Shown: positions 1 to 9,381 of the stretch, in pieces
How positions within the stretch are numbered: position 1 is the stretch's first letter
How the letters are laid out: each line of letters opens with the position of its first letter
Assembly (NCBI GenBank): GCA_942492995.1
Contig: OW818653.1
Location: 240,001-272,000, forward strand
Origin: an uncultured Erysipelotrichaceae bacterium
GTDB taxonomy: Bacteria > Bacillota_I > Bacilli_A > Erysipelotrichales > Erysipelotrichaceae
Direction: 5' to 3'
DNA length: 32,000 bases
The notes under the pieces: model-generated
The model's input: the letters and a program-made list of their open reading frames with translations, nothing else
The model's database searches: none
What the model was told of the DNA's origin: nothing
Made by a program: the position numbers and the translations under genes

Positions 1-2
1 CT

Positions 3-554
3 GGGTCATTTGCGGATGATGAATACATAAGTTCAACTATTAATCCTTGGTTTAATGTAGCAGAACCTATTTATCCATTACCGTTATTTGCAAGTAACGA
101 AGATGAATTTCTAATAACATTGAAATTCAATTATGAGATTGATTTTGATTTAACTTCAGTTGCAAGTGCCTTCACGATTAAAGATTTTACGAATGTACAG
201 TTTTCGATATTATCGACACAACCTGGAATAGATAATTCAGAGATTATATTTACTTTGAGTAATTTTGCCAGTGCAAGTGGTAATTTGTATATTTCTTATG
301 ATCGAACAATATTAGAATTAGATAGTTTACATCAAGGAAGTCGATTTGCTATTGAAAGTTTTGTGTTTGATTTTACACCTGAATTAGTACCACCAGAAGG
401 AAATGATTTTGAGAATATTACAATATCATTACCAGTAACGTTTGTATTAAAACAAGTGTTTTATTCAAGTGCATTTAATGGGAATGAAAACATTACATTA
501 AGCTTATCGAATATAAGTTTTATAGTTACGAAAGTTGGAAGTAATCCACTATAA
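3..554 (+). CDS. Phage structural protein of unknown function, C-terminal part (5' end outside window)
   Basis: The frame of the tracked 120..554 ORF stays open back to nt 3 (GSFADDEYISSTINPW...LITLKFNYE), so the gene enters the window truncated. It ends 8 nt before the next tail gene. No catalytic motif recognised. Confidence 0.5.
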   Translation, partial: GSFADDEYISSTINPWFNVAEPIYPLPLFASNEDEFLITLKFNYEIDFDLTSVASAFTIKDFTNVQFSILSTQPGIDNSEIIFTLSNFASASGNLYISYDRTILELDSLHQGSRFAIESFVFDFTPELVPPEGNDFENITISLPVTFVLKQVFYSSAFNGNENITLSLSNISFIVTKVGSNPL

Positions 555-562
555 GGAGAGTT

Positions 563-2455
563 ATGAATTTAAAAAATAAAGTTAATATTCACAATCGATT
601 TGACATCGAGATTAAAGATTCTATAACTGGAGAGTTAAAGAAATCGATTACTTCATATAATATAGTTTTAAATCAAATGTATACTCGTTTATGTGGTGGA
701 TCTTCGTATTTTGTTAACATACATTTTGGATCAGGCGCAGGTACTTTAGCTGCATCAAGAACAACTTTGTTTAGTCATCTTGGTACTAAAGTAGCAGTTG
801 ATGAAGAGATAATAAAAGCTATTCCTTTAAGTACTTGGAAACGCAAAGTCGTTTTAAATCCAGAAGAATTTGTTGGTAATACGATATCTGAAGTAGGTAT
901 TGCTTATGGAGCAACAAACACAAATTTGGTAACTCACTCGTTATTAAAAGACAGTGAAGGCAATCCAATTTCAATTGTTAAGACAGACGTAGATATTATC
1001 ACGATTTATGCGACTGTTTTTGTTACTTTTGATAATACTAATCCGAATTTAACGTACTTAAGCATGCCAAGTAGTAATACATTAGTTAATTATCTAATCG
1101 GTGGAGCAACTGCACCGACTGGAGCTTTTAGTTTAAATGATACATTTTTAGCGAAAATTAAATTGGGAACAACATCAACCGTTACATGGACAAGTGATAC
1201 GGCTAACAAACAAAGAAAAACAAATATACCTAGATTTGCGACTACTTCTGGTAATGGACACGTGAAATTTTTAGAATTCACAAATATATTTAGTCTAGAG
1301 TTGCCTTATACACCTGTATTTACAGGTCAAGGATATACTGGAGTATCTTTAGGTATCGGTGATGGAGTAGAGGAAGAATTTCAATTACCATCTGCTAATA
1401 TTAAGGATGATAGCATAGTGGTTAAGAGAAATGGTGTTGTAGAATCGTTATCAAATTATGTTTTGAGTGATTTTATAGGCGAACATAGATCTTCTAAAGT
1501 TCAAGTATTATCAATTGGAGGTTATTCAATACCATCTATTGCAATCTCAGGTGATGGCAAAGTTGTAGCAATCCCTCTTAGTAATTCGAATAACATAAGT
1601 ATATGTGATTTTGATGGAGAAAACTTAATATCTAGGTTTGAATATAATACACTTGCTCAATCAACTTATGATATAGCATTGAGTTATGATGGAATGGTTG
1701 TTGCAAGATCGAGTGCAAACGGTTCAATAATAGGCAGTGTAAGTGGATTCGCCAAAGTGTTTGATGTTGTTGGAAGTACACTTATTCCAAGAGCAACATT
1801 ATCCGATACTAATAGTGTTGTTCAACATTTAGAACTTTCAAACGATGGAAATCGACTTATATATGCGCCAAACTCTAGCACTTTAAAGAGTGTATTATGG
1901 AGTGGAACAAGCTGGAGTTATCAAACATTCGATGAAGTAATTAATAGTGCAAATATTGTTCAATTGAAGATGAATAAGACAGGCAATGTGTTAGCTGTTG
2001 CAATTAGTATTTCACCATTTATTGTCGTATTTGATTTAGTCGGTACAGTATGGTCAAAGCGTGTTAATCTATCAGTGTTGCCTAGTACTGCACCAACAGG
2101 AATATATATAAGTGAAGATGGTCAAATCCTTTATGTAGAGTTTGTAACAGGAAATGAGATGCACAGATGGAGTGGAGTAACTTGGAATAAAGCACCAAGA
2201 GTTGTTCGTGACCCTCAATGGTATAGAAAGAATACATCAATAAGCGATGATAGAAAATATTTAGTGAATACAAATGGTGGTGCATCTCCTTTTAATGACA
2301 TCAAATATGGGTTACCATTCAAAATTATTGAGTTCAATACACCACCTGCAGTTAATGATGTGATCACTGCAGATTATATTGTAGATGGAGTACACAAAAC
2401 GGATCAATTCGTAATTGATGCATTTTTTGCAATTCAATTCGGGGAGGGGATATAA
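563..2455 (+). CDS. Phage tail fibre / receptor-binding-type structural protein with a beta-propeller-like repeat domain
   Basis: 630-aa ORF with SD GGAGAG upstream. Six repeats spaced about 44-52 aa apart carry the motif [hydrophobic]-x-[IL]-S-x-D-G: IAISGDG, IALSYDG, LELSNDG, LKMNKTG, IYISEDG, SISDDR. It sits just upstream of the lysis module. Confidence 0.6.
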   Translation: MNLKNKVNIHNRFDIEIKDSITGELKKSITSYNIVLNQMYTRLCGGSSYFVNIHFGSGAGTLAASRTTLFSHLGTKVAVDEEIIKAIPLSTWKRKVVLNPEEFVGNTISEVGIAYGATNTNLVTHSLLKDSEGNPISIVKTDVDIITIYATVFVTFDNTNPNLTYLSMPSSNTLVNYLIGGATAPTGAFSLNDTFLAKIKLGTTSTVTWTSDTANKQRKTNIPRFATTSGNGHVKFLEFTNIFSLELPYTPVFTGQGYTGVSLGIGDGVEEEFQLPSANIKDDSIVVKRNGVVESLSNYVLSDFIGEHRSSKVQVLSIGGYSIPSIAISGDGKVVAIPLSNSNNISICDFDGENLISRFEYNTLAQSTYDIALSYDGMVVARSSANGSIIGSVSGFAKVFDVVGSTLIPRATLSDTNSVVQHLELSNDGNRLIYAPNSSTLKSVLWSGTSWSYQTFDEVINSANIVQLKMNKTGNVLAVAISISPFIVVFDLVGTVWSKRVNLSVLPSTAPTGIYISEDGQILYVEFVTGNEMHRWSGVTWNKAPRVVRDPQWYRKNTSISDDRKYLVNTNGGASPFNDIKYGLPFKIIEFNTPPAVNDVITADYIVDGVHKTDQFVIDAFFAIQFGEGI

Positions 2456-2620
2456 ATGAAGTTCGGAGAAATTCATTGTTCGTGTGGGCAAGTCTTCTAT
2501 TTTGAAACAAATAGAAGTGAAATAAATTGTGTAGGTTGTGGATTAAATCATAATGTTGAAAATTATCCTATAAAAGAAGAAGTTGTTGAGGAAGAACTTT
2601 TAGCTGAATCAGCAATGTGA
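2456..2620 (+). CDS. Small zinc-ribbon protein (54 aa), not in the ORF track
   Basis: ATG at 2456 lies directly after the TAA of the upstream gene and is preceded by GGGGAGGGGA. It translates to MKFGEIHCSCGQVFYFETNRSEINCVGCGLNHNVENYPIKEEVVEEELLAESAM, with a CxC...CxxC pattern and an acidic tail. Stop TGA at 2618-2620, 8 nt before the next gene. Confidence 0.45.
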   Translation: MKFGEIHCSCGQVFYFETNRSEINCVGCGLNHNVENYPIKEEVVEEELLAESAM

Positions 2621-2628
2621 GGTGTTGA

Positions 2629-3516
2629 ATGATATTAACATTTGAAAATCAAGGAGTAGTCGGGACTGGACTATTCCCTGATTTCTTACAGTTTTATGAT
2701 ACTGAAGGTCAATTGTTCTATGTTAAAGAAGGTGAGTTGTTTGGTAAACCAAGTGAAAAACTCAATGGATATTTTAACTCTCCCGATTGGTTGAGTGAAA
2801 ATAAAGTTTTAAATGATTCAAATGTTTCACTCTTAGAAATAAAGACATTGAATGGTTTTGGATTAATTGGATCATTTAAATCGAATGATACTCAAAAGAT
2901 GATAATCTATGAATTTCAATTTAATATGGATCAGTATTTGAAAGATGGAAATATTCAGTTCAGTGTAGATAACCCGATTTATTCATTTAATTTATCAGTG
3001 GAAAATCCAAAAGATGAATACAGTGATATTGATGGTAATGTTGCGATTAGTGAAAATTCAAGTTTGTTTTCACCTGGTGCAAAAGTCATATTTAAATTCT
3101 CAATGGGTGAAGGTGAAGAAGATTTTGAGATGGGAACATTTTACATTGATCATTCAGACTATTCAGTGTTATCCGAATCAGTTCAAGTTGATGGAAGAAA
3201 TCTCATTGGCAAAGCTTTAAAAGACCAAACTTTAAATACACACAAATCGATTAGTTATAAAACAATTAGTGGAATATTTGAAGAGTTACTAGAATATGCT
3301 AACTTGACTCATGATCAGTATGATGTTCAATTCGATTCAAACCAACGTTCTTTTGGGTTTACTGCAGATAAAGATATATTGAGTGCGATTAATGAAATTC
3401 TAAAGACAATGGTTACCTGGAAGATTGAAGAGAGTACTGACGGAAGAATTGTTATTGGTGATTTGAGTTATGGGTTATTTTGCTCCAAAATCAACTTATA
3501 CATTTCTAAGAAATAA
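2629..3516 (+). CDS. Phage structural (baseplate/tail-associated) hypothetical protein
   Basis: 295-aa ORF with SD GAGGTG upstream, in the tail-to-lysis gene block. Its 3' end overlaps the next ORF by 47 nt in another frame. Confidence 0.5.
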   Translation: MILTFENQGVVGTGLFPDFLQFYDTEGQLFYVKEGELFGKPSEKLNGYFNSPDWLSENKVLNDSNVSLLEIKTLNGFGLIGSFKSNDTQKMIIYEFQFNMDQYLKDGNIQFSVDNPIYSFNLSVENPKDEYSDIDGNVAISENSSLFSPGAKVIFKFSMGEGEEDFEMGTFYIDHSDYSVLSESVQVDGRNLIGKALKDQTLNTHKSISYKTISGIFEELLEYANLTHDQYDVQFDSNQRSFGFTADKDILSAINEILKTMVTWKIEESTDGRIVIGDLSYGLFCSKINLYISKK

Positions 3517-4000
3517 AGATATCTTCAGTCGTAGTATTCGAAGAGATGATGAATCAGCGTATCGTAAAGTGTGTATTCATGATCGTAATTGGACTGTTGA
3601 AGTCTATCGCGATGTTCAGTCATATTCTGGTTGGAATTTACAATCGAATAAAACATTGTTTATTGATGTGCCAGATGGAACATCACTAGCGAATGCATCG
3701 AGTATCGCGGATTCAATTGCTAGTCGTTTAGAGAGTGTTGGTAAGCTTGAAAGTTTCACAGGTCCTTTTAGACCTTTTTTATTAATAGGTGACGGAGCAT
3801 CAATTGTTGACGATAATGGAACAACTGAACTTGGGTTAATCACTGAAGTTTCTCATACATTCGGGAAGAGTGGATTTACCACGAGTTTTGCTGTTGATTC
3901 TGGAGGTAAAGTGGGTAGAGGAAGATTAGTTGATTATATTGCCATGGTACGTGGGGAAAGGACACCAGGATCGATTGGATACGAAGATATCATCCCATAA
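3470..4000 (+). CDS. Phage structural hypothetical protein (possibly the C-terminal part of the 2629 gene)
   Basis: 176-aa ORF in the +1 frame relative to 2629..3516. Its ATG comes one codon after an in-frame TGA (3464-3466). Only a weak SD (GGTGAT). Confidence 0.45.
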   Translation: MGYFAPKSTYTFLRNKDIFSRSIRRDDESAYRKVCIHDRNWTVEVYRDVQSYSGWNLQSNKTLFIDVPDGTSLANASSIADSIASRLESVGKLESFTGPFRPFLLIGDGASIVDDNGTTELGLITEVSHTFGKSGFTTSFAVDSGGKVGRGRLVDYIAMVRGERTPGSIGYEDIIP

Positions 4001-4256
4001 TGAGTTTAGCAAAAAATTAGTTCGAATAAGTTATTTGTTAGCAGTGTTACTAACTATTACTCTTTTTATAGGTTCTATTTTGGATAAAGATATGTCATCC
4101 TTTTCAAATGTAGTTTTAGCTAGTTGGGTAGAACTAAGTAGTATTAATGCATTTTATATTTGGAAAGCAAAAGCAGAGAATAAGATAAAAATTATTTCAT
4201 CATTACCTAAAGAGGTAATAGATAAGATAGAAGTCCTCCGGGACTTTTTTAATTGA
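3930..4256 (+). CDS. Small membrane protein, holin-like
   Basis: TTG start preceded by AGAGGAAG at 5-nt spacing. Two hydrophobic segments (ISYLLAVLLTITLFIGSIL and VVLASWVELSSINAFYIW). Located just upstream of the endolysin. The start is uncertain because it overlaps the previous ORF by 71 nt. Confidence 0.4.
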   Translation: MIILPWYVGKGHQDRLDTKISSHNEFSKKLVRISYLLAVLLTITLFIGSILDKDMSSFSNVVLASWVELSSINAFYIWKAKAENKIKIISSLPKEVIDKIEVLRDFFN

Positions 4257-4266
4257 AAGGAGAACT

Positions 4267-4626
4267 ATGGAAGTTCTAAAGAAATTTACATCACGCAAGT
4301 TTTTAATCCAACTCGGAGGATTGATATTCTCGATATTAGCTATTTTATATGGGAAGGATAATGAATCAGTAATGCTGATTGGTCAAGTAGGAGTTATTGT
4401 ATTTCCTTTAGCATATATCGTTGTCGAAACATATCTTGATGGAAAAGCGCTAAGTTTAAAACAAACTGTTCCAACATTTGCGAAAACTATCAATGATTTA
4501 GTTCAATTATATGAAGATCGATACGGTGAAGATGGTATAACAAACTTTATTCAAGATTTCTTAGCTTTACTAAAACGTCATTTTGAAGAAGACCAAGATA
4601 TAAAAGGCCCTGAGGTTACGGAATGA
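4267..4626 (+). CDS. Holin-like membrane protein
   Basis: SD GAAAGGAGAA upstream. Two TM segments (FLIQLGGLIFSILAILY and LIGQVGVIVFPLAYIVV) and a charged C-terminus. ATGA stop/start overlap with the endolysin gene. Confidence 0.5.
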   Translation: MEVLKKFTSRKFLIQLGGLIFSILAILYGKDNESVMLIGQVGVIVFPLAYIVVETYLDGKALSLKQTVPTFAKTINDLVQLYEDRYGEDGITNFIQDFLALLKRHFEEDQDIKGPEVTE

Positions 4627-5381
4627 AGTTAGCAGATGGATTACTAAGACGTACTGACTACGTACCAGGTGATCTATTTGGAATGCGATTCCATCCAATA
4701 GATAAAGTTTACAAAATGCATAATGGTGTTGACATTAAGACATATAAGAACAAATGGCCAATTTTTTCATTAGAACATGGAATAGTCGAAAATGTTGGAT
4801 ACGACAAGTTGATCGGTAATTTTACGCGTATCATTTATAGACGAATTGGTTATACTATTTTTCTTTATCATAAAGATGATAATTTATTAAAGAAGAAACA
4901 ACAGATTGGTCCATCAACATTAATTGGTCATGTTGGAACTACCGGTAAATCTACTGGTGTTCATTTGCATATTGGAGTAAAACGTATCGGTAGTGATGAA
5001 TGGATAGATCCAAATACAATTGATTATATTCCTCCAAATGATGAGCTTCTAATTGAAAATGGTATTCTAGATTCTAAAACACTTTATAAAATTCAGCTTT
5101 ATTACAAATTGTTTCCAGATTGCGAAATAAGTGGTCAAGTTAATTTGGATCTAATTAAGAAGTTTAAATTTATCAAGCTTGGAACAAGTGGATCTAATTT
5201 GATTAAAGCTATTCAAAAAGACTTATCGATCACAGTTGATGGTAAAGCTGGTAAACAGACAATTAAGGCTATGCAAAAATCAACTGGTACACCTGAAACC
5301 GGAATAATTCTTGTAAAGAATGATCCTATGATTTTGGAAATGCAAAAAAGAATTAATCGTGGGGGAAAATTATGGGGGTAA
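4623..5381 (+). CDS. Endolysin: M23 family metallopeptidase with a C-terminal peptidoglycan-binding-like domain
   Basis: M23 motifs HNGVDI (HxxxD) and GVHLHIGV (HxH). The C-terminal LIKAIQKDLSITVDGKAGKQTIKAMQK resembles a PG_binding_1 repeat. Position is typical of a phage lysis cassette. Confidence 0.8.
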   Translation: MKLADGLLRRTDYVPGDLFGMRFHPIDKVYKMHNGVDIKTYKNKWPIFSLEHGIVENVGYDKLIGNFTRIIYRRIGYTIFLYHKDDNLLKKKQQIGPSTLIGHVGTTGKSTGVHLHIGVKRIGSDEWIDPNTIDYIPPNDELLIENGILDSKTLYKIQLYYKLFPDCEISGQVNLDLIKKFKFIKLGTSGSNLIKAIQKDLSITVDGKAGKQTIKAMQKSTGTPETGIILVKNDPMILEMQKRINRGGKLWG

Positions 5382-5384
5382 AAT

Positions 5385-5702
5385 ATGATTGATGCAAACA
5401 GTGGATTAACATTTGGATTACTTGGAGTAATGGTTGGAGCTGCAATTGGAATGTTCAGTTATATGGCCAAGGTTAAAACCGAAGCTAAAGCTGAAGGTAA
5501 GGCAGAAGGAACACTTCAATCAACCATGGACAATATTGATAAAAAGATTGATAAAATGAATGATTCGAATGAAGCTTTTCAAAAAGAACATCGAGAAGAA
5601 CATAAAGAACTTAATAATCGAGTTCAAAGAGTTGAAGAATACGTATCAATTCAGAAATCAAAAACAAAAAGTAAGGGACATAACGATCCTGAAGAAGCAT
5701 AA
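5385..5702 (+). CDS. Membrane-anchored coiled-coil protein (lysis accessory or holin-like)
   Basis: N-terminal TM (LTFGLLGVMVGAAIGMFSYMA) followed by a charged, heptad-like region (KTEAKAEGKAEG...HREEHKELNNRVQRVEE). Last gene before a strong terminator. Confidence 0.45.
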   Translation: MIDANSGLTFGLLGVMVGAAIGMFSYMAKVKTEAKAEGKAEGTLQSTMDNIDKKIDKMNDSNEAFQKEHREEHKELNNRVQRVEEYVSIQKSKTKSKGHNDPEEA

Positions 5703-5726
5703 CCCCTCTTAATTGAGGGGTTTTAT
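5701..5726 (+). terminator. Rho-independent terminator ending the phage late/lysis operon
   Basis: AACCCCTC-TTAATT-GAGGGGTT hairpin followed by TTTAT. It overlaps the TAA stop at 5700-5702. Confidence 0.8.
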
Positions 5727-5840
5727 ACTTGTAAATAATAATTGAAATAGAATATGAATAAACTTGACCATGGGCAACATTTTATGTTGAATCAGAAAAT
5801 GCGTGTATAATAAACTTATATTAGTTAGGGGGATGTGATT

Positions 5841-6293
5841 ATGATTTATGTTTTTGAAGATCCAAATGTTGTAGCTAGATACATTTTAAGTAAAGTTCCT
5901 TCTTCGCAGAAGAAACTTCATAAGTTACTTTACTATGCATTTAGTTGGTATCTTTATATTAATAACGAAAAAGATGAAATTAAAAATCTATTATTCCCTA
6001 ATAGTTTTCAAGCATGGGTACATGGTCCAGTTTTAAGAGATGTTTACCCTGTATATTCAAAATTTGGATTTAGGGAAATGGAAGTAACTAATTTTAGTGA
6101 CAATATTAATCATGATGTTGCTTTATTTCTTGATAATGTAATTGATACTTATGGTGATTTTGACGCAAATACTTTAGAAGAAAGAACACACTCTGATACC
6201 GCTTGGATTAAAGCTAGGGGTAATTTAGAAGCGAATGAACCATGTAAAGTGGTGCTAAAACTTGAAGATATTTATGAGAGTTTAGATAACTAA
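5841..6293 (+). CDS. Panacea / DUF4065 domain protein (SocA-like, putative PanA-type antitoxin)
   Basis: Shows the family signature as I remember it: KKLHKLLYYAFSW...FQAWVHGPVLRDVYPVYSKFG...LEERTHSDTAWIKA. SD TAGGGGGA lies 7 nt before ATG 5841; the tracked GTG at 5835 abuts the SD and is unlikely. 150 aa, with no extra HTH domain. Confidence 0.75.
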   Translation: MIYVFEDPNVVARYILSKVPSSQKKLHKLLYYAFSWYLYINNEKDEIKNLLFPNSFQAWVHGPVLRDVYPVYSKFGFREMEVTNFSDNINHDVALFLDNVIDTYGDFDANTLEERTHSDTAWIKARGNLEANEPCKVVLKLEDIYESLDN

Positions 6294-6838
6294 TGCCTGC
6301 AAAAAATAAGAAAATAGATGTTAAATCAACGGAAGTTGATTCATATAGTCAAAATATAATTGTCGATTACTCATTTAAAACCATTTGGGTTTCTGTAACT
6401 GTGGATGAGTTTACGAATTATTTATGTAGTAAAGAAGAATTTTTTAAGTTTCACTATATGATTTTTTCAAAATTGACTTTCGAGTTAAGTGGTATAAGTA
6501 GAAAAGAATTATTTGTTAAATTTCCACATTCAAGAACATTAAAAGATTATGATCTTAAAAAAATCACACCAATTTTAAGAGCATTATTAAAAAAACAAAA
6601 TGATGCATATTCTGAAAAGGATATTACAGATGCAATAAATCAAAATATTTCTGAAGAGCAACTATATCAAATTGGACATAATTCGATGAGAGTTATAGGG
6701 TATTTCAAGAAAAATGTATTTAAAGTTTTATTTTTTGATTACTATCATCTAATAAATCCTGATAAAAATTATAATGAATCAGATTATTCCAGCTACTCAT
6801 TTTGTGTATACTCTGAGGGAAAAAATCAAAATGGATAA
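6293..6838 (+). CDS. Hypothetical protein, candidate toxin/effector partner of the Panacea protein
   Basis: 181-aa ORF. Its ATG shares one base with the upstream TAA (TAATG). No family recognised. The C-terminal LYQIGHNSMRVIGYFKKNVFKVLFFDYYHLI is reminiscent of the RelE/ParE/HigB beta-hairpin region. Confidence 0.5.
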   Translation: MPAKNKKIDVKSTEVDSYSQNIIVDYSFKTIWVSVTVDEFTNYLCSKEEFFKFHYMIFSKLTFELSGISRKELFVKFPHSRTLKDYDLKKITPILRALLKKQNDAYSEKDITDAINQNISEEQLYQIGHNSMRVIGYFKKNVFKVLFFDYYHLINPDKNYNESDYSSYSFCVYSEGKNQNG

Positions 6839-7145
6839 AAATCTATTATATTCATCAAATAAAGAAGAACTCATGGCTAAAATTAAAACTTTAGTGCAAT
6901 CTGGAGAAGGCGGTAAGTACCAAGAACCATTAGAAAAATGGTTAGTTTGGTTTGAGAAAAACTATTCTGAAATTAAACTCGAAAATTTATTATTCCCAAA
7001 TTTCTATCGAGCATATTATTGTGATCGAGATATATTTTCTGTACAGATTTGGATAGAAGACGAAAATGGAGTTAAAAGTCATTTGAAAACACTTTACTCT
7101 AATATACCCAATGAGTTAAGTGAATTAGAAACTGTGTATCTATAA
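6831..7145 (+). CDS. Hypothetical protein, third gene of the Panacea cassette
   Basis: ATG 6831 lies 10 nt after SD GAGGGA and overlaps the upstream stop by 8 nt (ATGGATAA). 104 aa, MDKNLLYSSNKEEL... The tracked start at 6774 has no SD. Tandem terminators follow. Confidence 0.45.
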   Translation: MDKNLLYSSNKEELMAKIKTLVQSGEGGKYQEPLEKWLVWFEKNYSEIKLENLLFPNFYRAYYCDRDIFSVQIWIEDENGVKSHLKTLYSNIPNELSELETVYL

Positions 7146-7192: not shown

Positions 7193-7221
7193 AAAAAGCC
7201 TTATAAATAAAGGCTTTTTTT
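7193..7221 (+). terminator. Rho-independent terminator (first of two) after the three-gene cassette
   Basis: AAAGCCTT-ATAAATA-AAGGCTTT hairpin followed by a run of six T. Confidence 0.75.
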
Positions 7222-7228
7222 CATCAAG

Positions 7229-7258
7229 CAACGGACTGAAAATCCGTTGTTCGTTTTT
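7229..7258 (+). terminator. Second hairpin plus T-tract; the stem-loop is identical in form to a tRNA-Phe(GAA) anticodon arm
   Basis: CAACGGA-CTGAAAA-TCCGTTG followed by TTCGTTTTT. The 7-nt loop has U at position 33, GAA at 34-36 and A at 37. Confidence 0.55.
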
Positions 7259-7334
7259 CAACTGATATTTAAATAAAAGATATAAAGATTATTTTTGTTG
7301 GTTCGTTTATAATATTACTTAAAAGGGGAGAATA

Positions 7335-8183
7335 ATGAGTAATATTATAGATGCAATAATTAATATAGTAAATAATCCTATGTTCGAATTAAAAAAATAC
7401 GACACAACTAATAATAGAGCAAACGATATGGGAAAAGCTCTTGAAGAATATGTAAAAGATGTTTTTGCGAACACTTTATATGAAAAAAATCAAACAAAAA
7501 GGAACAACAAGATATCCAACACTTTTAGTTATCTTGGAAATAAAAATAATCCACCTGATTGTATTCTTCGTGGCGGAGATGCAATTGAAGTTAAAAAAAT
7601 ACAAGAGTATAAAGCAGATCTTGCACTAAATTCGTCCCATCCAAAATCGATGTTATATGCAAATAGTCCGTTAATTTCAAAAGCGTGTATAAATTGTGAA
7701 TCTTGGACAGAAAAAGAAATTATATATATTACAGGTGTTGTAAATGAAGATAATCTTTCAGATTTAGCTATGGTATATGGTATGGATTATGCAGCTTCAG
7801 AAGATGCGTATTTAAGAGTGAAAGAATATATTAAAGATAGTATAAGTCATATTCCAGATGTAGATTTTTCCGAAACAAAAGAGTTAGGTAGAGTAAATAA
7901 TGTGGACCCATTAGGAATAACATACCTTAGAATCAGAGGCATGTGGGGAATATCAAACCCTTTCAATGTGTTCCAATACATTTATACTAAAAACAAGAAT
8001 CATCGTTTTAATTTAATGGTAATAATTAGTTTAGAGAAATTCAAATCATTTGAAAACTCGATTGAATTATTGAGTTTATCGTTAACGGTTCCTAATTTAA
8101 AAATTAGAACAAAACAAATTTATGATCCGAATAATAAAGCTAATTTAGTCGATGCTATGTTGATAACATTTTCAAAGGAGTAG
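7335..8183 (+). CDS. Type II restriction endonuclease, PD-(D/E)XK fold (NgoPII-like, probable GGCC)
   Basis: Signature NPPDCILRGGDAIEVKK (PD...ExK). SD AAAGGGGAG upstream. It ends 6 nt before an NgoPII/HaeIII-like m5C methyltransferase gene. 282 aa is close to the size I recall for R.NgoPII. Confidence 0.65.
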   Translation: MSNIIDAIINIVNNPMFELKKYDTTNNRANDMGKALEEYVKDVFANTLYEKNQTKRNNKISNTFSYLGNKNNPPDCILRGGDAIEVKKIQEYKADLALNSSHPKSMLYANSPLISKACINCESWTEKEIIYITGVVNEDNLSDLAMVYGMDYAASEDAYLRVKEYIKDSISHIPDVDFSETKELGRVNNVDPLGITYLRIRGMWGISNPFNVFQYIYTKNKNHRFNLMVIISLEKFKSFENSIELLSLSLTVPNLKIRTKQIYDPNNKANLVDAMLITFSKE

Positions 8184-8189
8184 ATAAGA

Positions 8190-9188
8190 ATGAAATTAGT
8201 TAGCTTGTTTTCCGGAGCTGGTGGAATGGATTTAGGTTTTAAAAAAGCTGGTTTCAAAATAGTTTTTGCAAATGAATATGATAAAACGATTTGGGAGACA
8301 TATGAAAAAAACCATCATTCACATCTAAATAAGAATGATATTAGAGTTTTAAAAAGTGAAGATATTCCTGAATGTGATGGGATAATTGGTGGCCCTCCAT
8401 GTCAATCTTGGTCTGAAGCAGGCACTTTAAGAGGAATTGACGATCATAGAGGTCAGCTTTTTTATGAGTTTATCAGAATACTCAGTGATAAACAACCAAA
8501 GTTTTTTGTTGCCGAAAATGTCTCCGGAATGTTAGCTGAAAGACACAGCCCTGCAGTTGAGAATATTATCAATATGTTTGAAAATGCAGGAACTGGGTAC
8601 GATGTATATATAAAAATGTTAAATGCTTCTGATTATGGAGTTGCTCAAGATAGAAAGCGAATTTTTTATGTTGGGTTCAGAAAAGATTTAAATGTTATTT
8701 TTAAATTCCCAGAACCATTAAGTAGTAAGAAAGTTTTAAAAGATATTATTTGGGATTTAAAAGATAATGCTAAACCTGCTCAAAAAATGAATAATGCCAA
8801 TAGTGATTTAGAAATAAGTAACCATGAGTATATGACAGGTGAGTTTTCTTCTATTTTCATGAGTCGAAATAGAGTAAGAAGTTGGGATGAACCAAGTTTC
8901 ACAATACAAGCAGGTGGGAGACATGCTCCGATTCATCCAAATGCTCCAAAAATGATTAAAGTTGAAAAGGATATCCAGAAGTTCGCTGAGGGAAGTGAAG
9001 ATAAATATAGAAGATTAACAGTAAGAGAATGTGCGAGAATCCAATCATTTCCGGAAGATTTTATATTTTACTATAAAAAAGTTGCGGATGGTTACAAAAT
9101 GGTAGGGAATGCGGTTCCTGTTGAATTAGCATATTATGTCGCAAAATCAGTTAAAAATGCATTATTTCAAGTTGAACAATCCAAGTAA
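8190..9188 (+). CDS. DNA (cytosine-5)-methyltransferase, M.HaeIII / M.NgoPII-like (probable GGCC)
   Basis: Canonical m5C motifs: [11 protein letters not shown] (I), GGPPCQSWS (IV), ENV (VI), [11 protein letters not shown] (VIII), [18 protein letters not shown] and GNAVPV (IX/X). It is colinear along its length with my recollection of M.HaeIII and M.NgoPII, including the variable region ([17 protein letters not shown]). Confidence 0.9.
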
Positions 9189-9231
9189 ATAATTCTGGTA
9201 ATAATCCTGATTTATTACAGAAAAAATGATT

Positions 9232-9253
9232 TGTATCACCACTGTATCACCAC
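9232..9253. repeat. Perfect 11-bp tandem direct repeat, TGTATCACCAC x2
   Basis: Read directly: 9232-9242 equals 9243-9253. It lies between the methyltransferase stop and the tRNA-Ser terminator. Confidence 0.9.
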
Positions 9254-9284
9254 AAAAATAAAAAACCCTTATAAAATAAGGGTT
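9254..9284 (-). terminator. Terminator of tRNA-Ser (minus strand)
   Basis: AACCCTT-ATAAAAT-AAGGGTT hairpin. On the minus strand it is followed by TTTTTTATTTTT. Confidence 0.7.
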
Positions 9285-9293
9285 AAACGCTAC

Positions 9294-9381
9294 TGGCGGA
9301 GGACATGAGATTCGAACTCACGGAAGCTTGCACTTCGCCACCTTTCCAAGATGGTGCCTTAAACCGCTCGGCCAATCCTCC
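9294..9381 (-). tRNA. tRNA-Ser (anticodon GGA), class II with long variable arm, CCA encoded
   Basis: Reverse complement: GGAGGATTGGCCGAGCGGTTTAAGGCACCATCTTGGAAAGGTGGCGAAGTGCAAGCTTCCGTGAGTTCGAATCTCATGTCCTCCGCCA. The acceptor pairs, the anticodon stem is CCATC/GGTGG with loop TTGGAAA, there is a long variable arm, and the T-loop is GTTCGAATC. Confidence 0.9.

Follow-up and report, generated by a model that had tools for sequence, protein, structure and literature searches.

A Panacea-led three-gene prophage operon resembling PanAT toxin-antitoxin systems in an uncultured Erysipelotrichaceae bacterium

Three overlapping genes (g1, g2 and g3) that follow the lysis genes of a prophage in the 32,000-nt stretch of DNA analysed here (the window; contig OW818653.1, positions 240,001 to 272,000, from an uncultured Erysipelotrichaceae bacterium) are best read as a PanAT-type, toxin-antitoxin (TA)-like operon, a reading to which we give somewhat better than even odds (roughly 0.55) and in which g1 would be the antitoxin, g2 a nuclease-like toxin and g3 an additional binder or modulator. 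Every related locus that was found repeats the arrangement, which therefore goes beyond chance. Toxicity, binding partners, nuclease activity and biological role are what we infer for the cassette: it would be transcribed from a promoter of its own, apart from the lysis genes; g1 would act as a minimal stand-alone PanA, most likely binding g2 and neutralising it directly; and the likely outcome for the host would be stabilisation of the prophage or island and/or abortive defence against superinfecting phages. The analysis provides an annotation for three families of ‘hypothetical protein’ and draws attention to what is likely to be an addiction or defence cassette encoded by the prophage.

Operon layout and genomic setting

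The three closely packed reading frames with overlapping stop and start signals described in an earlier note on this DNA are present in the sequence as stated, both junctions included (Table 1). g1 and g2 overlap by 1 nt (TAATG at 6291-6295) and g2 and g3 by 8 nt (ATGGATAA at 6831-6838); in the g1 frame, a GTG at 5835 is likewise open. Four relatives with 59-78% amino acid identity keep the g1/g2 junction as TAATG or TGATG and the g2/g3 junction as ATGGATA[AG], with an AAGG(G)A Shine-Dalgarno sequence 5' of the latter. Purifying selection acts on all three genes (dN/dS 0.06-0.2 overall; 0.12-0.20 for g1, 0.06-0.19 for g2 and 0.08-0.17 for g3), and the encoded families follow a charge pattern, with a median pI of 8.7 in the g2 family against 5.1 in PanA and 4.8 in the g3 family (g1 and g3 themselves each have a pI of 4.9).

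Table 1. Positions of the cassette genes, their flanking signals and the adjoining lysis genes in the window
Feature	Position	Strand	Description
M23 peptidase gene	4623-5381		Upstream lysis operon
XhlA-like gene	5385-5702		Upstream lysis operon
Intrinsic terminator	5701-5722	+	Ends upstream lysis operon; terminator scan, -14.2 kcal/mol, z -3.95
Putative promoter box GTGTATAATAA	5803-5813	+	-10 hexamer TATAAT at 5806-5811
RBS GGGGG	5828-5832	+	8 nt 5' of g1 ATG; conserved in relatives
g1	5841-6293	+	Stand-alone Panacea/DUF4065 protein (PanA-type), 150 aa from ATG
g2	6293-6838	+	181 aa, basic; uncharacterised Panacea-linked family; presumed toxin, possibly nuclease
g3	6831-7145	+	104 aa, acidic, alpha-alpha-beta-beta-beta; coupled to g2; clade-specific accessory component
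Cassette intrinsic terminator	7193-7222	+	Hairpin 7193-7219 plus U-tract; -10 kcal/mol, z -3.84
Hairpin, tRNA-Phe(GAA) anticodon-arm relic	7227-7251	+	Folds at -10.7 kcal/mol

The claim that the cassette is an operon of its own holds, in that a conserved -10 box, an RBS and a terminator belong to it. The GTGTATAATAA box is invariant in four relatives despite diverged flanks; no convincing -35 element was found at it, and its conservation suggests that it may be the promoter of the cassette. The cassette terminator is kept in two relatives (L001 and L003). A hairpin equivalent to the terminator of the lysis operon is found in three (L001-L003); in the window, this terminator forms the left limit of the cassette.

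Two terminators had been proposed at 7193-7258, of which the first is real, whereas the second is a tRNA-Phe relic. At this second hairpin the window retains just the first 20 nt of the anticodon-arm segment of tRNA-Phe(GAA), while in L001 and L003 the segment runs on as GCAACGGACTGAAAATCCGTGTGTCGCCAG, a tRNA-Phe sequence, and both contigs stop there. The hairpin is therefore better taken for a relic of the prophage end or att site than for a dedicated terminator; it is probably what is left of the attachment core of the phage and of the ancestral end of the prophage. The 26-mer GCAACGGACTGAAAATCCGTGTGTCGCCAG lay inside tRNA-Phe genes in all 14 loci checked by exact-word search and ARAGORN; the short tRNA fragment in the window gave no Rfam match.

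The cassette thus occupies an att-proximal cargo slot behind the lysis genes, as the proposed moron location implied, but the unit does not include the neighbouring restriction-modification (R-M) system, which compared with L002 is an indel. In Listeria phage B025 this post-lysis slot is occupied by a Panacea gene together with a MazF-like gene. Neither the cassette nor g2 had a match among 50,697 phage genomes (blastn, tblastn), and the prophage is itself novel, with one weak tail-protein match.

A Panacea gene and its conserved partner

The g1 product matches Pfam SocA_Panacea PF13274 over residues 26-122 (5.6e-13; 50.2 bits against a cut-off of 25.7) as well as phrog_1281 (8.9e-32), and contains all three strings by which it had first been assigned to DUF4065/Panacea (LHKLLYYAFSW, AWVHGPV and THSDTAW), so that the assignment is backed by the Pfam score. 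Its Panacea domain is shared with SocAB, the type VI TA system of Caulobacter in which SocA is the founding Panacea protein. Unlike SocAB, however, g1 falls well short of the equivalog score that the NCBIfam SocA model NF047745 requires (4e-9; 36.4 bits against 190), g2 is not SocB-like and there is no sign of a ClpXP-adaptor mechanism. No DNA-binding domain for autoregulation was evident in the cassette proteins.

An exhaustive profile search (E<=1e-3) placed g2 in a partner family of about 165 representative clusters (50% identity), mostly from gut Bacilli and Tenericutes and from their phages and satellites; a word-indexed protein search returned just three relatives for g2 and three for g3, and motif scans of IMG/VR returned none with two motif sets and seven with a third. 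The statement that g2 and g3 fall in no family also stands: neither has a Pfam, PADLOC or PDB assignment, Foldseek on the AF2 models gave no significant PDB match, and no informative name came from Pfam, NCBIfam, PHROGs or PADLOC. At the sequence level g2 matched nothing in Pfam or the PDB, nor did g3 and 38 relatives match any Pfam model (SecB included), and PADLOC-DB 2.0 (E<=1) matched neither g1, g2 nor g3, the neighbouring R-M genes alone giving matches. The matches of g2 were to phrog_24206 (1.4e-9) and to NF046006, the uncharacterised MAG6450 family of NCBIfam (17.8 bits, E 0.0036), where the curated cut-off of 40 was not reached. The latter model was matched by 36 of 88 g2-family members (best 4e-7), which hints weakly at a relation to MAG6450 that would be distant only; a literature search found no function for MAG6450.

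Gene neighbourhoods were censused in prophages, IMG/VR viral contigs and chromosomal sites of metagenome-assembled genomes (MAGs) of gut Bacilli and Tenericutes, down to about 25% identity. In 39 of 39 loci the g2-family gene is immediately preceded by a Panacea gene, and the satellite phage Javan218 provides an additional case. One NJ clade of the g2 family, with 26 distinct members, has the third gene throughout, linked to both other genes, whereas all eight loci outside the clade lack it. Conservation of the neighbourhood, which the earlier note had named as a check that could refute its reading, thus came out in favour of the linkage. Since the Panacea gene is found at every censused locus and g3 is limited to one clade, the core of the system is the PanA-g2 pair, with g3 a clade-fixed accessory. 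The three-gene architecture to which the earlier note had drawn attention is accordingly real here and across that clade, but it does not extend to a universal third component. Fusions of g2 with g3 were absent from 150 family representatives. In the reduced-genome MAGs of Bacilli the module is compact and complete in itself, inserted between housekeeping genes, and it also occurs in prophages and satellites.

These features agree with the operational definition of PanAT systems given by Kurata et al. 2022 (PMC8832971): the cassette has a Panacea gene, a 1-nt overlap, linkage in 39 of 39 loci across many taxa, and a terminator boundary. Panacea antitoxins pair with dozens of unrelated toxins, and the cassette is like PanAT systems in its stand-alone Panacea gene that adjoins and overlaps a conserved partner, in its order from antitoxin to toxin, in being prophage-borne, as they often are, and in having no more than three genes per operon; RelE/HigB-like and MazF-like partners are known among them, and Dataset S1 of the same study pairs PanA with the RelE/HigB-like toxin clusters T14 and T28 (PMC8832971). 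The cassette is unlike them in that g2 has no Pfam, PADLOC or PDB model and no matched PanT cluster, the 88 PanA-associated toxin clusters of Kurata et al. being listed by accession only (PMC8832971), and in that its third gene is fixed in a whole clade and translationally coupled. Cluster T4 was considered as the g2 family and rejected, its members being of the coiled-coil or DUF334 membrane type. Cluster T1 is labelled as an mRNase; we draw no link between it and g2.

Synteny alone is no proof of a TA system, because of the 25 PanTs predicted by Kurata et al. eight (one third) were non-toxic in E. coli and five were not rescued by PanA, with nine of the 25 predicted pairs validated (PMC8832971). 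It is therefore worth weighing whether PanA-g2(-g3) is instead a non-toxic module of mobile elements, with a part in anti-defence, superinfection exclusion or nucleic-acid processing alongside a regulatory partner. Besides the non-toxic PanTs, the lack of a PADLOC or TA-family match for g2 and g3 is in keeping with such a module, as are the approximately 1,000 Panacea proteins of Dataset S1 that have no reliably predicted toxin partner (PMC8832971). However, the patchy mobile distribution in MAG inserts, prophages and satellites is what TA and defence cassettes typically show, and a basic partner with acidic companions in tight coupling suits a TA system, so that we consider the non-toxic module unlikely.

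Predicted structure of g2 and its candidate active site

Within the TA reading, g2 would be the effector or toxin, most likely a nuclease, and we favour the sub-hypothesis that a helical insertion interrupts a RelE/HigB-like RNase core. The AF2 model of g2 (pLDDT 94.7) has the topology beta..alpha-alpha-alpha-alpha-beta-beta-beta, with a three-stranded sheet that bears a conserved Gln-Arg-Asp-(Tyr)-His constellation and a conserved His in the preceding loop. Across the family D149 and H152 are invariant and N42, H79, Q126, R133 and N161 conserved, and distant subfamilies have additional zinc-ribbon-like CxxC..CxxC tails. This high-confidence model offers an obvious candidate for the active site. 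In Foldseek searches of the PDB, RelE and HigB proteins headed the matches without reaching significance (E>=0.17, TM 0.13-0.30), and at least 13 of the best 50 matches were RelE, HigB, YafQ, ParE or Cami1; a search of BFVD gave one unnamed match, D7RWK8 (E 3.9e-4, TM 0.46). Weak Foldseek matches to GNAT acetyltransferase toxins were discarded, as topology and CoA motif do not fit.

Like the ribosome-dependent mRNA endonuclease toxins of the HigB/RelE family, g2 is basic and has a three-stranded antiparallel sheet after its helices. In the alignment described below, which did not pass its shuffle control, HigB residues are paired with an Arg on the middle strand of g2, with the Asp-Tyr-His that closes its last strand and with a loop His. 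It differs from them in being double their size, with an N-terminal extension, a 30-residue C-terminal extension and an insertion of about 40 residues that contains two helices, and in giving no significant sequence or structure score. Pfam models of RelE, HigB, ParE, YoeB and Gp49 matched neither g2 nor 88 family members (E<=0.1), and an hhalign comparison of g2 with one HigB sequence found nothing. Against an alignment of 10 HigB sequences, hhalign paired H79, R133 and D149-Y150-x151 of g2 with H54, R73 and D90-Y91-H92 of HigB (score 18.3, P 0.017), a score equalled or exceeded by 39 of 200 block-shuffled controls; because the alignment failed this control, membership of the RelE superfamily is not claimed for g2. 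Should g2 nevertheless be a RelE/HigB derivative, the superfamily would be extended to a much larger architecture.

The conserved motif D-Y-H-H-L-I-x-P-x3-Y-N of the g2 family, which we take to resemble the HH..P..N signature of HNH nucleases, raises the question of whether g2, instead of being a RelE-like RNase, is a His-Me/HNH-type DNase, and the zinc-ribbon-like tails together with an HCH...C pattern in some subfamilies point the same way. Against this, none of 88 members has an HNH Pfam match, no HNH structure is among the Foldseek matches of g2, and in the AF2 model the His pair is not followed by a beta-beta-alpha-metal finger, which leaves an HNH enzyme very improbable.

The third gene and the division of labour in the cassette

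The g3 family comprises about 38 clusters, all of about 100-115 aa, in which Y7, K17, Q72, W74 and N91 are invariant and W37 and W40 near-invariant. The AF2 model of g3 (pLDDT 86.7) has the fold given in Table 1, for which a Foldseek search of the PDB found no match, and no catalytic-looking residues are conserved. In the TA reading, g3 would have entered this branch of the family a single time and stayed there since, and its most likely action would be to bind g2, or PanA and g2 in complex, as a co-inhibitor, a stabiliser or a modulator that responds to a trigger. The grounds for this proposed role are synteny, charge and the lack of residues that look catalytic.

An exchange of roles between the two partners, with g3 the toxin and g2 an accessory enzyme or adaptor, is hard to credit. 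The order of elements in g3 (short beta, alpha, alpha, beta, beta, beta) bears a superficial likeness to small RelE/ParE-type toxins, but Foldseek returned no RelE, ParE or other significant match; moreover, g3 is acidic and has no conserved catalytic residues, and the partner of Panacea across the family is g2.

A different division, in which g3 neutralises g2 in trans and the Panacea protein serves as sensor or regulator, is less improbable. The small size and acidity of g3 (pI 4.8), its conserved aromatics W37, W40, W74 and Y7, its lack of catalytic-type residues and its translational coupling to g2 all suit a neutraliser, and Ernits et al. 2023 (PMC10440598) put forward the hypothesis that Panacea is sensory in multi-domain PanAs, which neutralise through PAD1, Phd-C or ZBD. 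Yet the same study showed that stand-alone Panacea neutralises toxins directly (PMC10440598), and in all eight loci outside the clade PanA and g2 are paired without g3; PanA presumably suffices there, since it has the same length as elsewhere (150-165 aa) and no extra domain. Neutralisation by g3 with a sensory Panacea is thus doubtful, and direct neutralisation by g1 is the reading that we retain.

Tripartite TA systems include HigBAC/CmdTAC (with a chaperone), SpoIISABC (with two antitoxins), HipBST and PaaR-PaaA-ParE, in which a small third gene is co-transcribed with the TA pair and modulates stability, neutralisation or regulation. The cassette is like these in having a small third gene beside the pair; unlike the chaperone of the TAC systems, g3 is not SecB-like, and it has neither a helix-turn-helix nor a ribbon-helix-helix and shows no likeness to known third components. 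That the Panacea systems of the g3 clade are truly tripartite, with g3 as an in-trans neutraliser or trigger-sensing subunit for a previously unrecognised nuclease toxin that is an enlarged RelE/HigB-like protein or has a new fold, is a tentative, minority proposition. Should g3 indeed modulate the pair, no obligate third component would have been described for a PanAT system before it. Whether Panacea acts as neutraliser or as sensor is the mechanistic question left by Ernits et al. 2023 (PMC10440598), and the presumed toxin family of g2, which occurs with g3 in 26 distinct loci and without it in eight, would offer a natural comparative system for it.

Panacea partnership and the distribution of g3

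The three open reading frames of the cassette (g1, g2 and g3) are packed with overlapping stop and start signals, as the earlier note had read them, with TAATG at the g1/g2 junction and ATGGATAA at the g2/g3 junction, and these overlaps are conserved in relatives. The Panacea (DUF4065) identity proposed for g1 was borne out by Pfam (5.6e-13; 50.2 bits against a cut-off of 25.7); the protein is of the stand-alone type and scored far below the SocA equivalog cut-off.

Related loci were gathered in five ways (exact-protein look-ups, a GTDB genome scan, a metagenome scan, IMG/VR scans and GenBank phages), and HMMs for Panacea, g2 and g3 were run over all six-frame segments of the loci collected. 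A Panacea gene lay immediately upstream of the g2-family gene in all 39 of 39 loci, an order also seen in Streptococcus satellite phage Javan218. The third gene followed g2 in the window and in the related loci L001–L032, and was missing from 7/7 IMG/VR loci of a more distant subfamily and from Javan218; where the context of distant g2 subfamilies was visible (L036–L042), a Panacea partner was present and g3 was not. The linkage suspected earlier thus held for g2 throughout and for g3 across one clade. A neighbour-joining tree of 34 distinct g2 sequences grouped the 26 that are linked to g3 in a single clade, with all eight g3-less ones outside it; this is most simply explained if g3 was gained once and strictly retained thereafter, down to approximately 25% identity. 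No g2–g3 fusion was found among 150 representatives. Values of dN/dS were 0.06–0.20 for g1, g2 and g3, with synonymous sites near saturation, and each gene is by this measure under purifying selection.

In close relatives the triad lies directly after M23/XhlA lysis genes, at a contig end, while in MAGs of gut Bacilli and "Tenericutes" it stands alone, flanked by housekeeping genes (pyrH, smpB/rnr and xseAB among them), a patchy distribution that a small module with a selfish or defensive role would be expected to show. The two-gene pair of Javan218 (MK448368.1, 10481–11499) adjoins a paratox gene and is carried by a phage satellite, so PICI-like elements are a further vehicle of the module. 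In one gut-metagenome lineage (L026/L027, 4485–5426, minus strand) the triad lies approximately 1.2 kb from a RhuM/Fic-domain gene, and in another locus (L030) it is preceded by an HTH gene and by two ORFs of 156–160 aa without annotation; these surroundings may be a small defence or toxin–antitoxin (TA) islet.

The g2 and g3 families

The earlier note had been unable to place genes 2 and 3 in any family, and the searches agreed. For g2 there was no match in Pfam, PADLOC or PDB sequences, the sole PHROG match was phrog_24206 (no function assigned), and NCBIfam NF046006 ("MAG6450 family", named for a conserved hypothetical protein of Mycoplasma agalactiae with no known function) was weakly matched by 36 of 88 family members (best 4e-7). 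A word-indexed protein search gave three relatives, and a profile search run exhaustively over 1.84 billion representatives gave 165 clusters (E≤1e-3), almost all of them 165–240 aa long. The family is basic (median pI 8.7). Residues D149 and H152 are invariant and N42, H79, Q126, R133 and N161 nearly so, as is a second histidine two residues after H79, which is arginine in the window protein. Distant subfamilies (represented by P0038, P0052, P0066, P0082, P0101, P0110 and P0086, P0115, P0127, P0133, P0138, P0154) have D[PF]HH where others have DY[HY]H, and carry C-terminal tails of 30–60 aa, either CxxC...CxxC (zinc-ribbon-like) or coiled-coil, which would fit a nucleic-acid-directed protein.

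The AF2 model of g2 (88-sequence alignment; pLDDT 94.7, pTM 0.86) comprises helices at 47–66, 70–76, 85–102, 108–118 and 172–180 and β-strands at 23–25, 124–129, 132–139 and 142–149. Foldseek gave no significant match in the PDB (best E 0.17) and one unnamed viral protein in BFVD (E 3.9e-4). At least 13 of the top 50 PDB matches were RelE, HigB, YafQ, ParE-like or Cami1 chains, at poor TM scores (0.13–0.30).

A resemblance to Proteus HigB was seen in the motif R-x19-H and in D-Y-H at a strand end. When compared by hhalign with a 10-sequence HigB alignment built from plasmid records, H79, R133, D149, Y150 and residue 151 of g2 (Tyr in the window protein but His in most of the family) were paired with HigB H54, R73, D90, Y91 and H92. 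The score of 18.3 (P 0.017) was reached by 3/200 column-shuffled and 39/200 block-shuffled controls, and the RelE/HigB relationship is for this reason a lead rather than a finding. A RelE/HigB-like RNase is a tentative identity for g2, rated less likely than not; an HNH-like DNase appears very improbable.

The g3 family comprised 38 clusters of 99–115 aa in a profile search, is acidic (pI 4.8) and has no Pfam relation; Y7, K17, Q72, W74 and N91 are invariant, and W37 and W40 nearly so. Its confident model (pLDDT 86.7; two helices, then a three-stranded sheet) had no PDB match.

Relation to PanAT systems and putative roles

A PanAT locus is defined as an operon of at most three genes in which Panacea is encoded no more than 100 nt from a conserved partner; nine predicted pairs have been validated and complex formation shown, and the dataset includes RelE/HigB-like partners (Kurata et al. 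2022, PMC8832971). Our locus agreed with every element of the PanAT definition that can be examined computationally, and it did not qualify as SocAB, as TAC, as RelE/HigB at the sequence level or as any PADLOC system. In Listeria phage B025 (NC_009812.1, 21942–22834), gp27 (DUF4065) overlaps gp28, a MazF-like growth inhibitor, in the same post-endolysin, pre-attP slot. Accessory genes are so far sporadic in the PanAT literature, whereas here a translationally coupled third gene is fixed throughout the clade, which appears new; no tripartite Panacea system was found described in the later literature searched. The unannotated g2 partner family also appears new, with overlap possible since the 88 toxin clusters of Kurata et al. 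are known by accession only.

We consider a PanAT-type TA system with an accessory g3 the leading reading (probability roughly 0.55). In it, g1, of a family with acidic median pI (5.1), would be the antitoxin, g2 the toxin and most likely a nuclease, and g3 a clade-specific acidic binder that modulates the pair, whether by co-inhibition, by stabilisation or in response to a trigger. Stand-alone Panacea neutralises directly and multi-domain PanAs act via other domains, and a sensory role for Panacea has been proposed (Ernits et al. 2023, PMC10440598). The alternative in which neutralisation falls to g3, with Panacea as a sensor, draws on the latter proposal and seems rather improbable beside the former result and the g3-less pairs. 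A non-toxic module is likewise an unlikely reading. A toxic g3 is scarcely credible beside the g3-less pairs.

Cassette boundaries and flanking DNA

Features of the cassette and its flanks in the window
Feature	Position	Strand	Remarks
M23-peptidase endolysin	4623–5381		upstream of cassette
XhlA-like protein	5385–5702		upstream of cassette
Strong hairpin terminator	5701–5722		upstream of cassette
11-nt box GTGTATAATAA	5803–5813		same in four relatives
g1	5841–6293	+	ORF, 150 aa
g2	6293–6838	+	ORF, 181 aa
g3	6831–7145	+	ORF, 104 aa
Hairpin and U-tract	7193–7222		downstream of cassette
Second hairpin	7227–7251		downstream of cassette
NgoPII-type restriction enzyme	7335–8183		downstream, past both hairpins
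C5 methyltransferase	8190–9188		downstream of restriction enzyme
tRNA-Ser	9294–9381	−	downstream of C5 methyltransferase

The proposed siting between lysis genes and a restriction-modification (R-M) system near a tRNA was confirmed. Amid diverged surrounding DNA, the four relatives keep both the 11-nt box and a GGGGG ribosome-binding site unchanged, and because of this the cassette looks as if it were transcribed autonomously. The prophage structural and lysis region (window 1–5702) had a sole match among 50,697 GenBank phage records, a human-gut, IMG/VR-derived phage at 40% identity.

Of the two terminators said to close the unit, the hairpin with U-tract stood, and the second proved to be a tRNA-Phe piece, namely the initial 20 nt of an anticodon-arm segment from tRNA-Phe(GAA). 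At the same position L001 (10920–10965) and L003 (1725–1758) read GCAACGGACTGAAAATCCGTGTGTCGCCAG, a genuine tRNA-Phe continuation, and both contigs end there; this 26-mer fell within a tRNA-Phe gene in each of the 14 IMG/VR loci checked, and an intact tRNA-Phe is absent from the window. The segment is probably the core of a phage att site, intact or as a relic, and would mark where the ancestral phage ended.

In L002 (1695–1794) g3 is followed by approximately 250 bp, a TTTGTATCACCAC(T/A)GTATCACCAC repeat, a terminator and tRNA-Ser, with no NgoPII-type R-M pair; the counterpart in the window (9231–9320) lies after the methyltransferase. Compared with L002, window 7331–9234 thus contains the R-M pair as an insertion or deletion between cassette and tRNA-Ser, flanked by the similar short words AATAATGAGT and AAAAATGATT. 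Because L002 runs from g3 to the tRNA-Ser region without it, the pair is placed outside the cassette unit and looks like cargo that was gained or lost independently. A tandem direct repeat, GTATCACCAC(T)GTATCACCAC (9231–9253), lies just within the terminator next to tRNA-Ser; it is conserved in L002 and could serve the prophage as an integrase arm-type or att-associated site.
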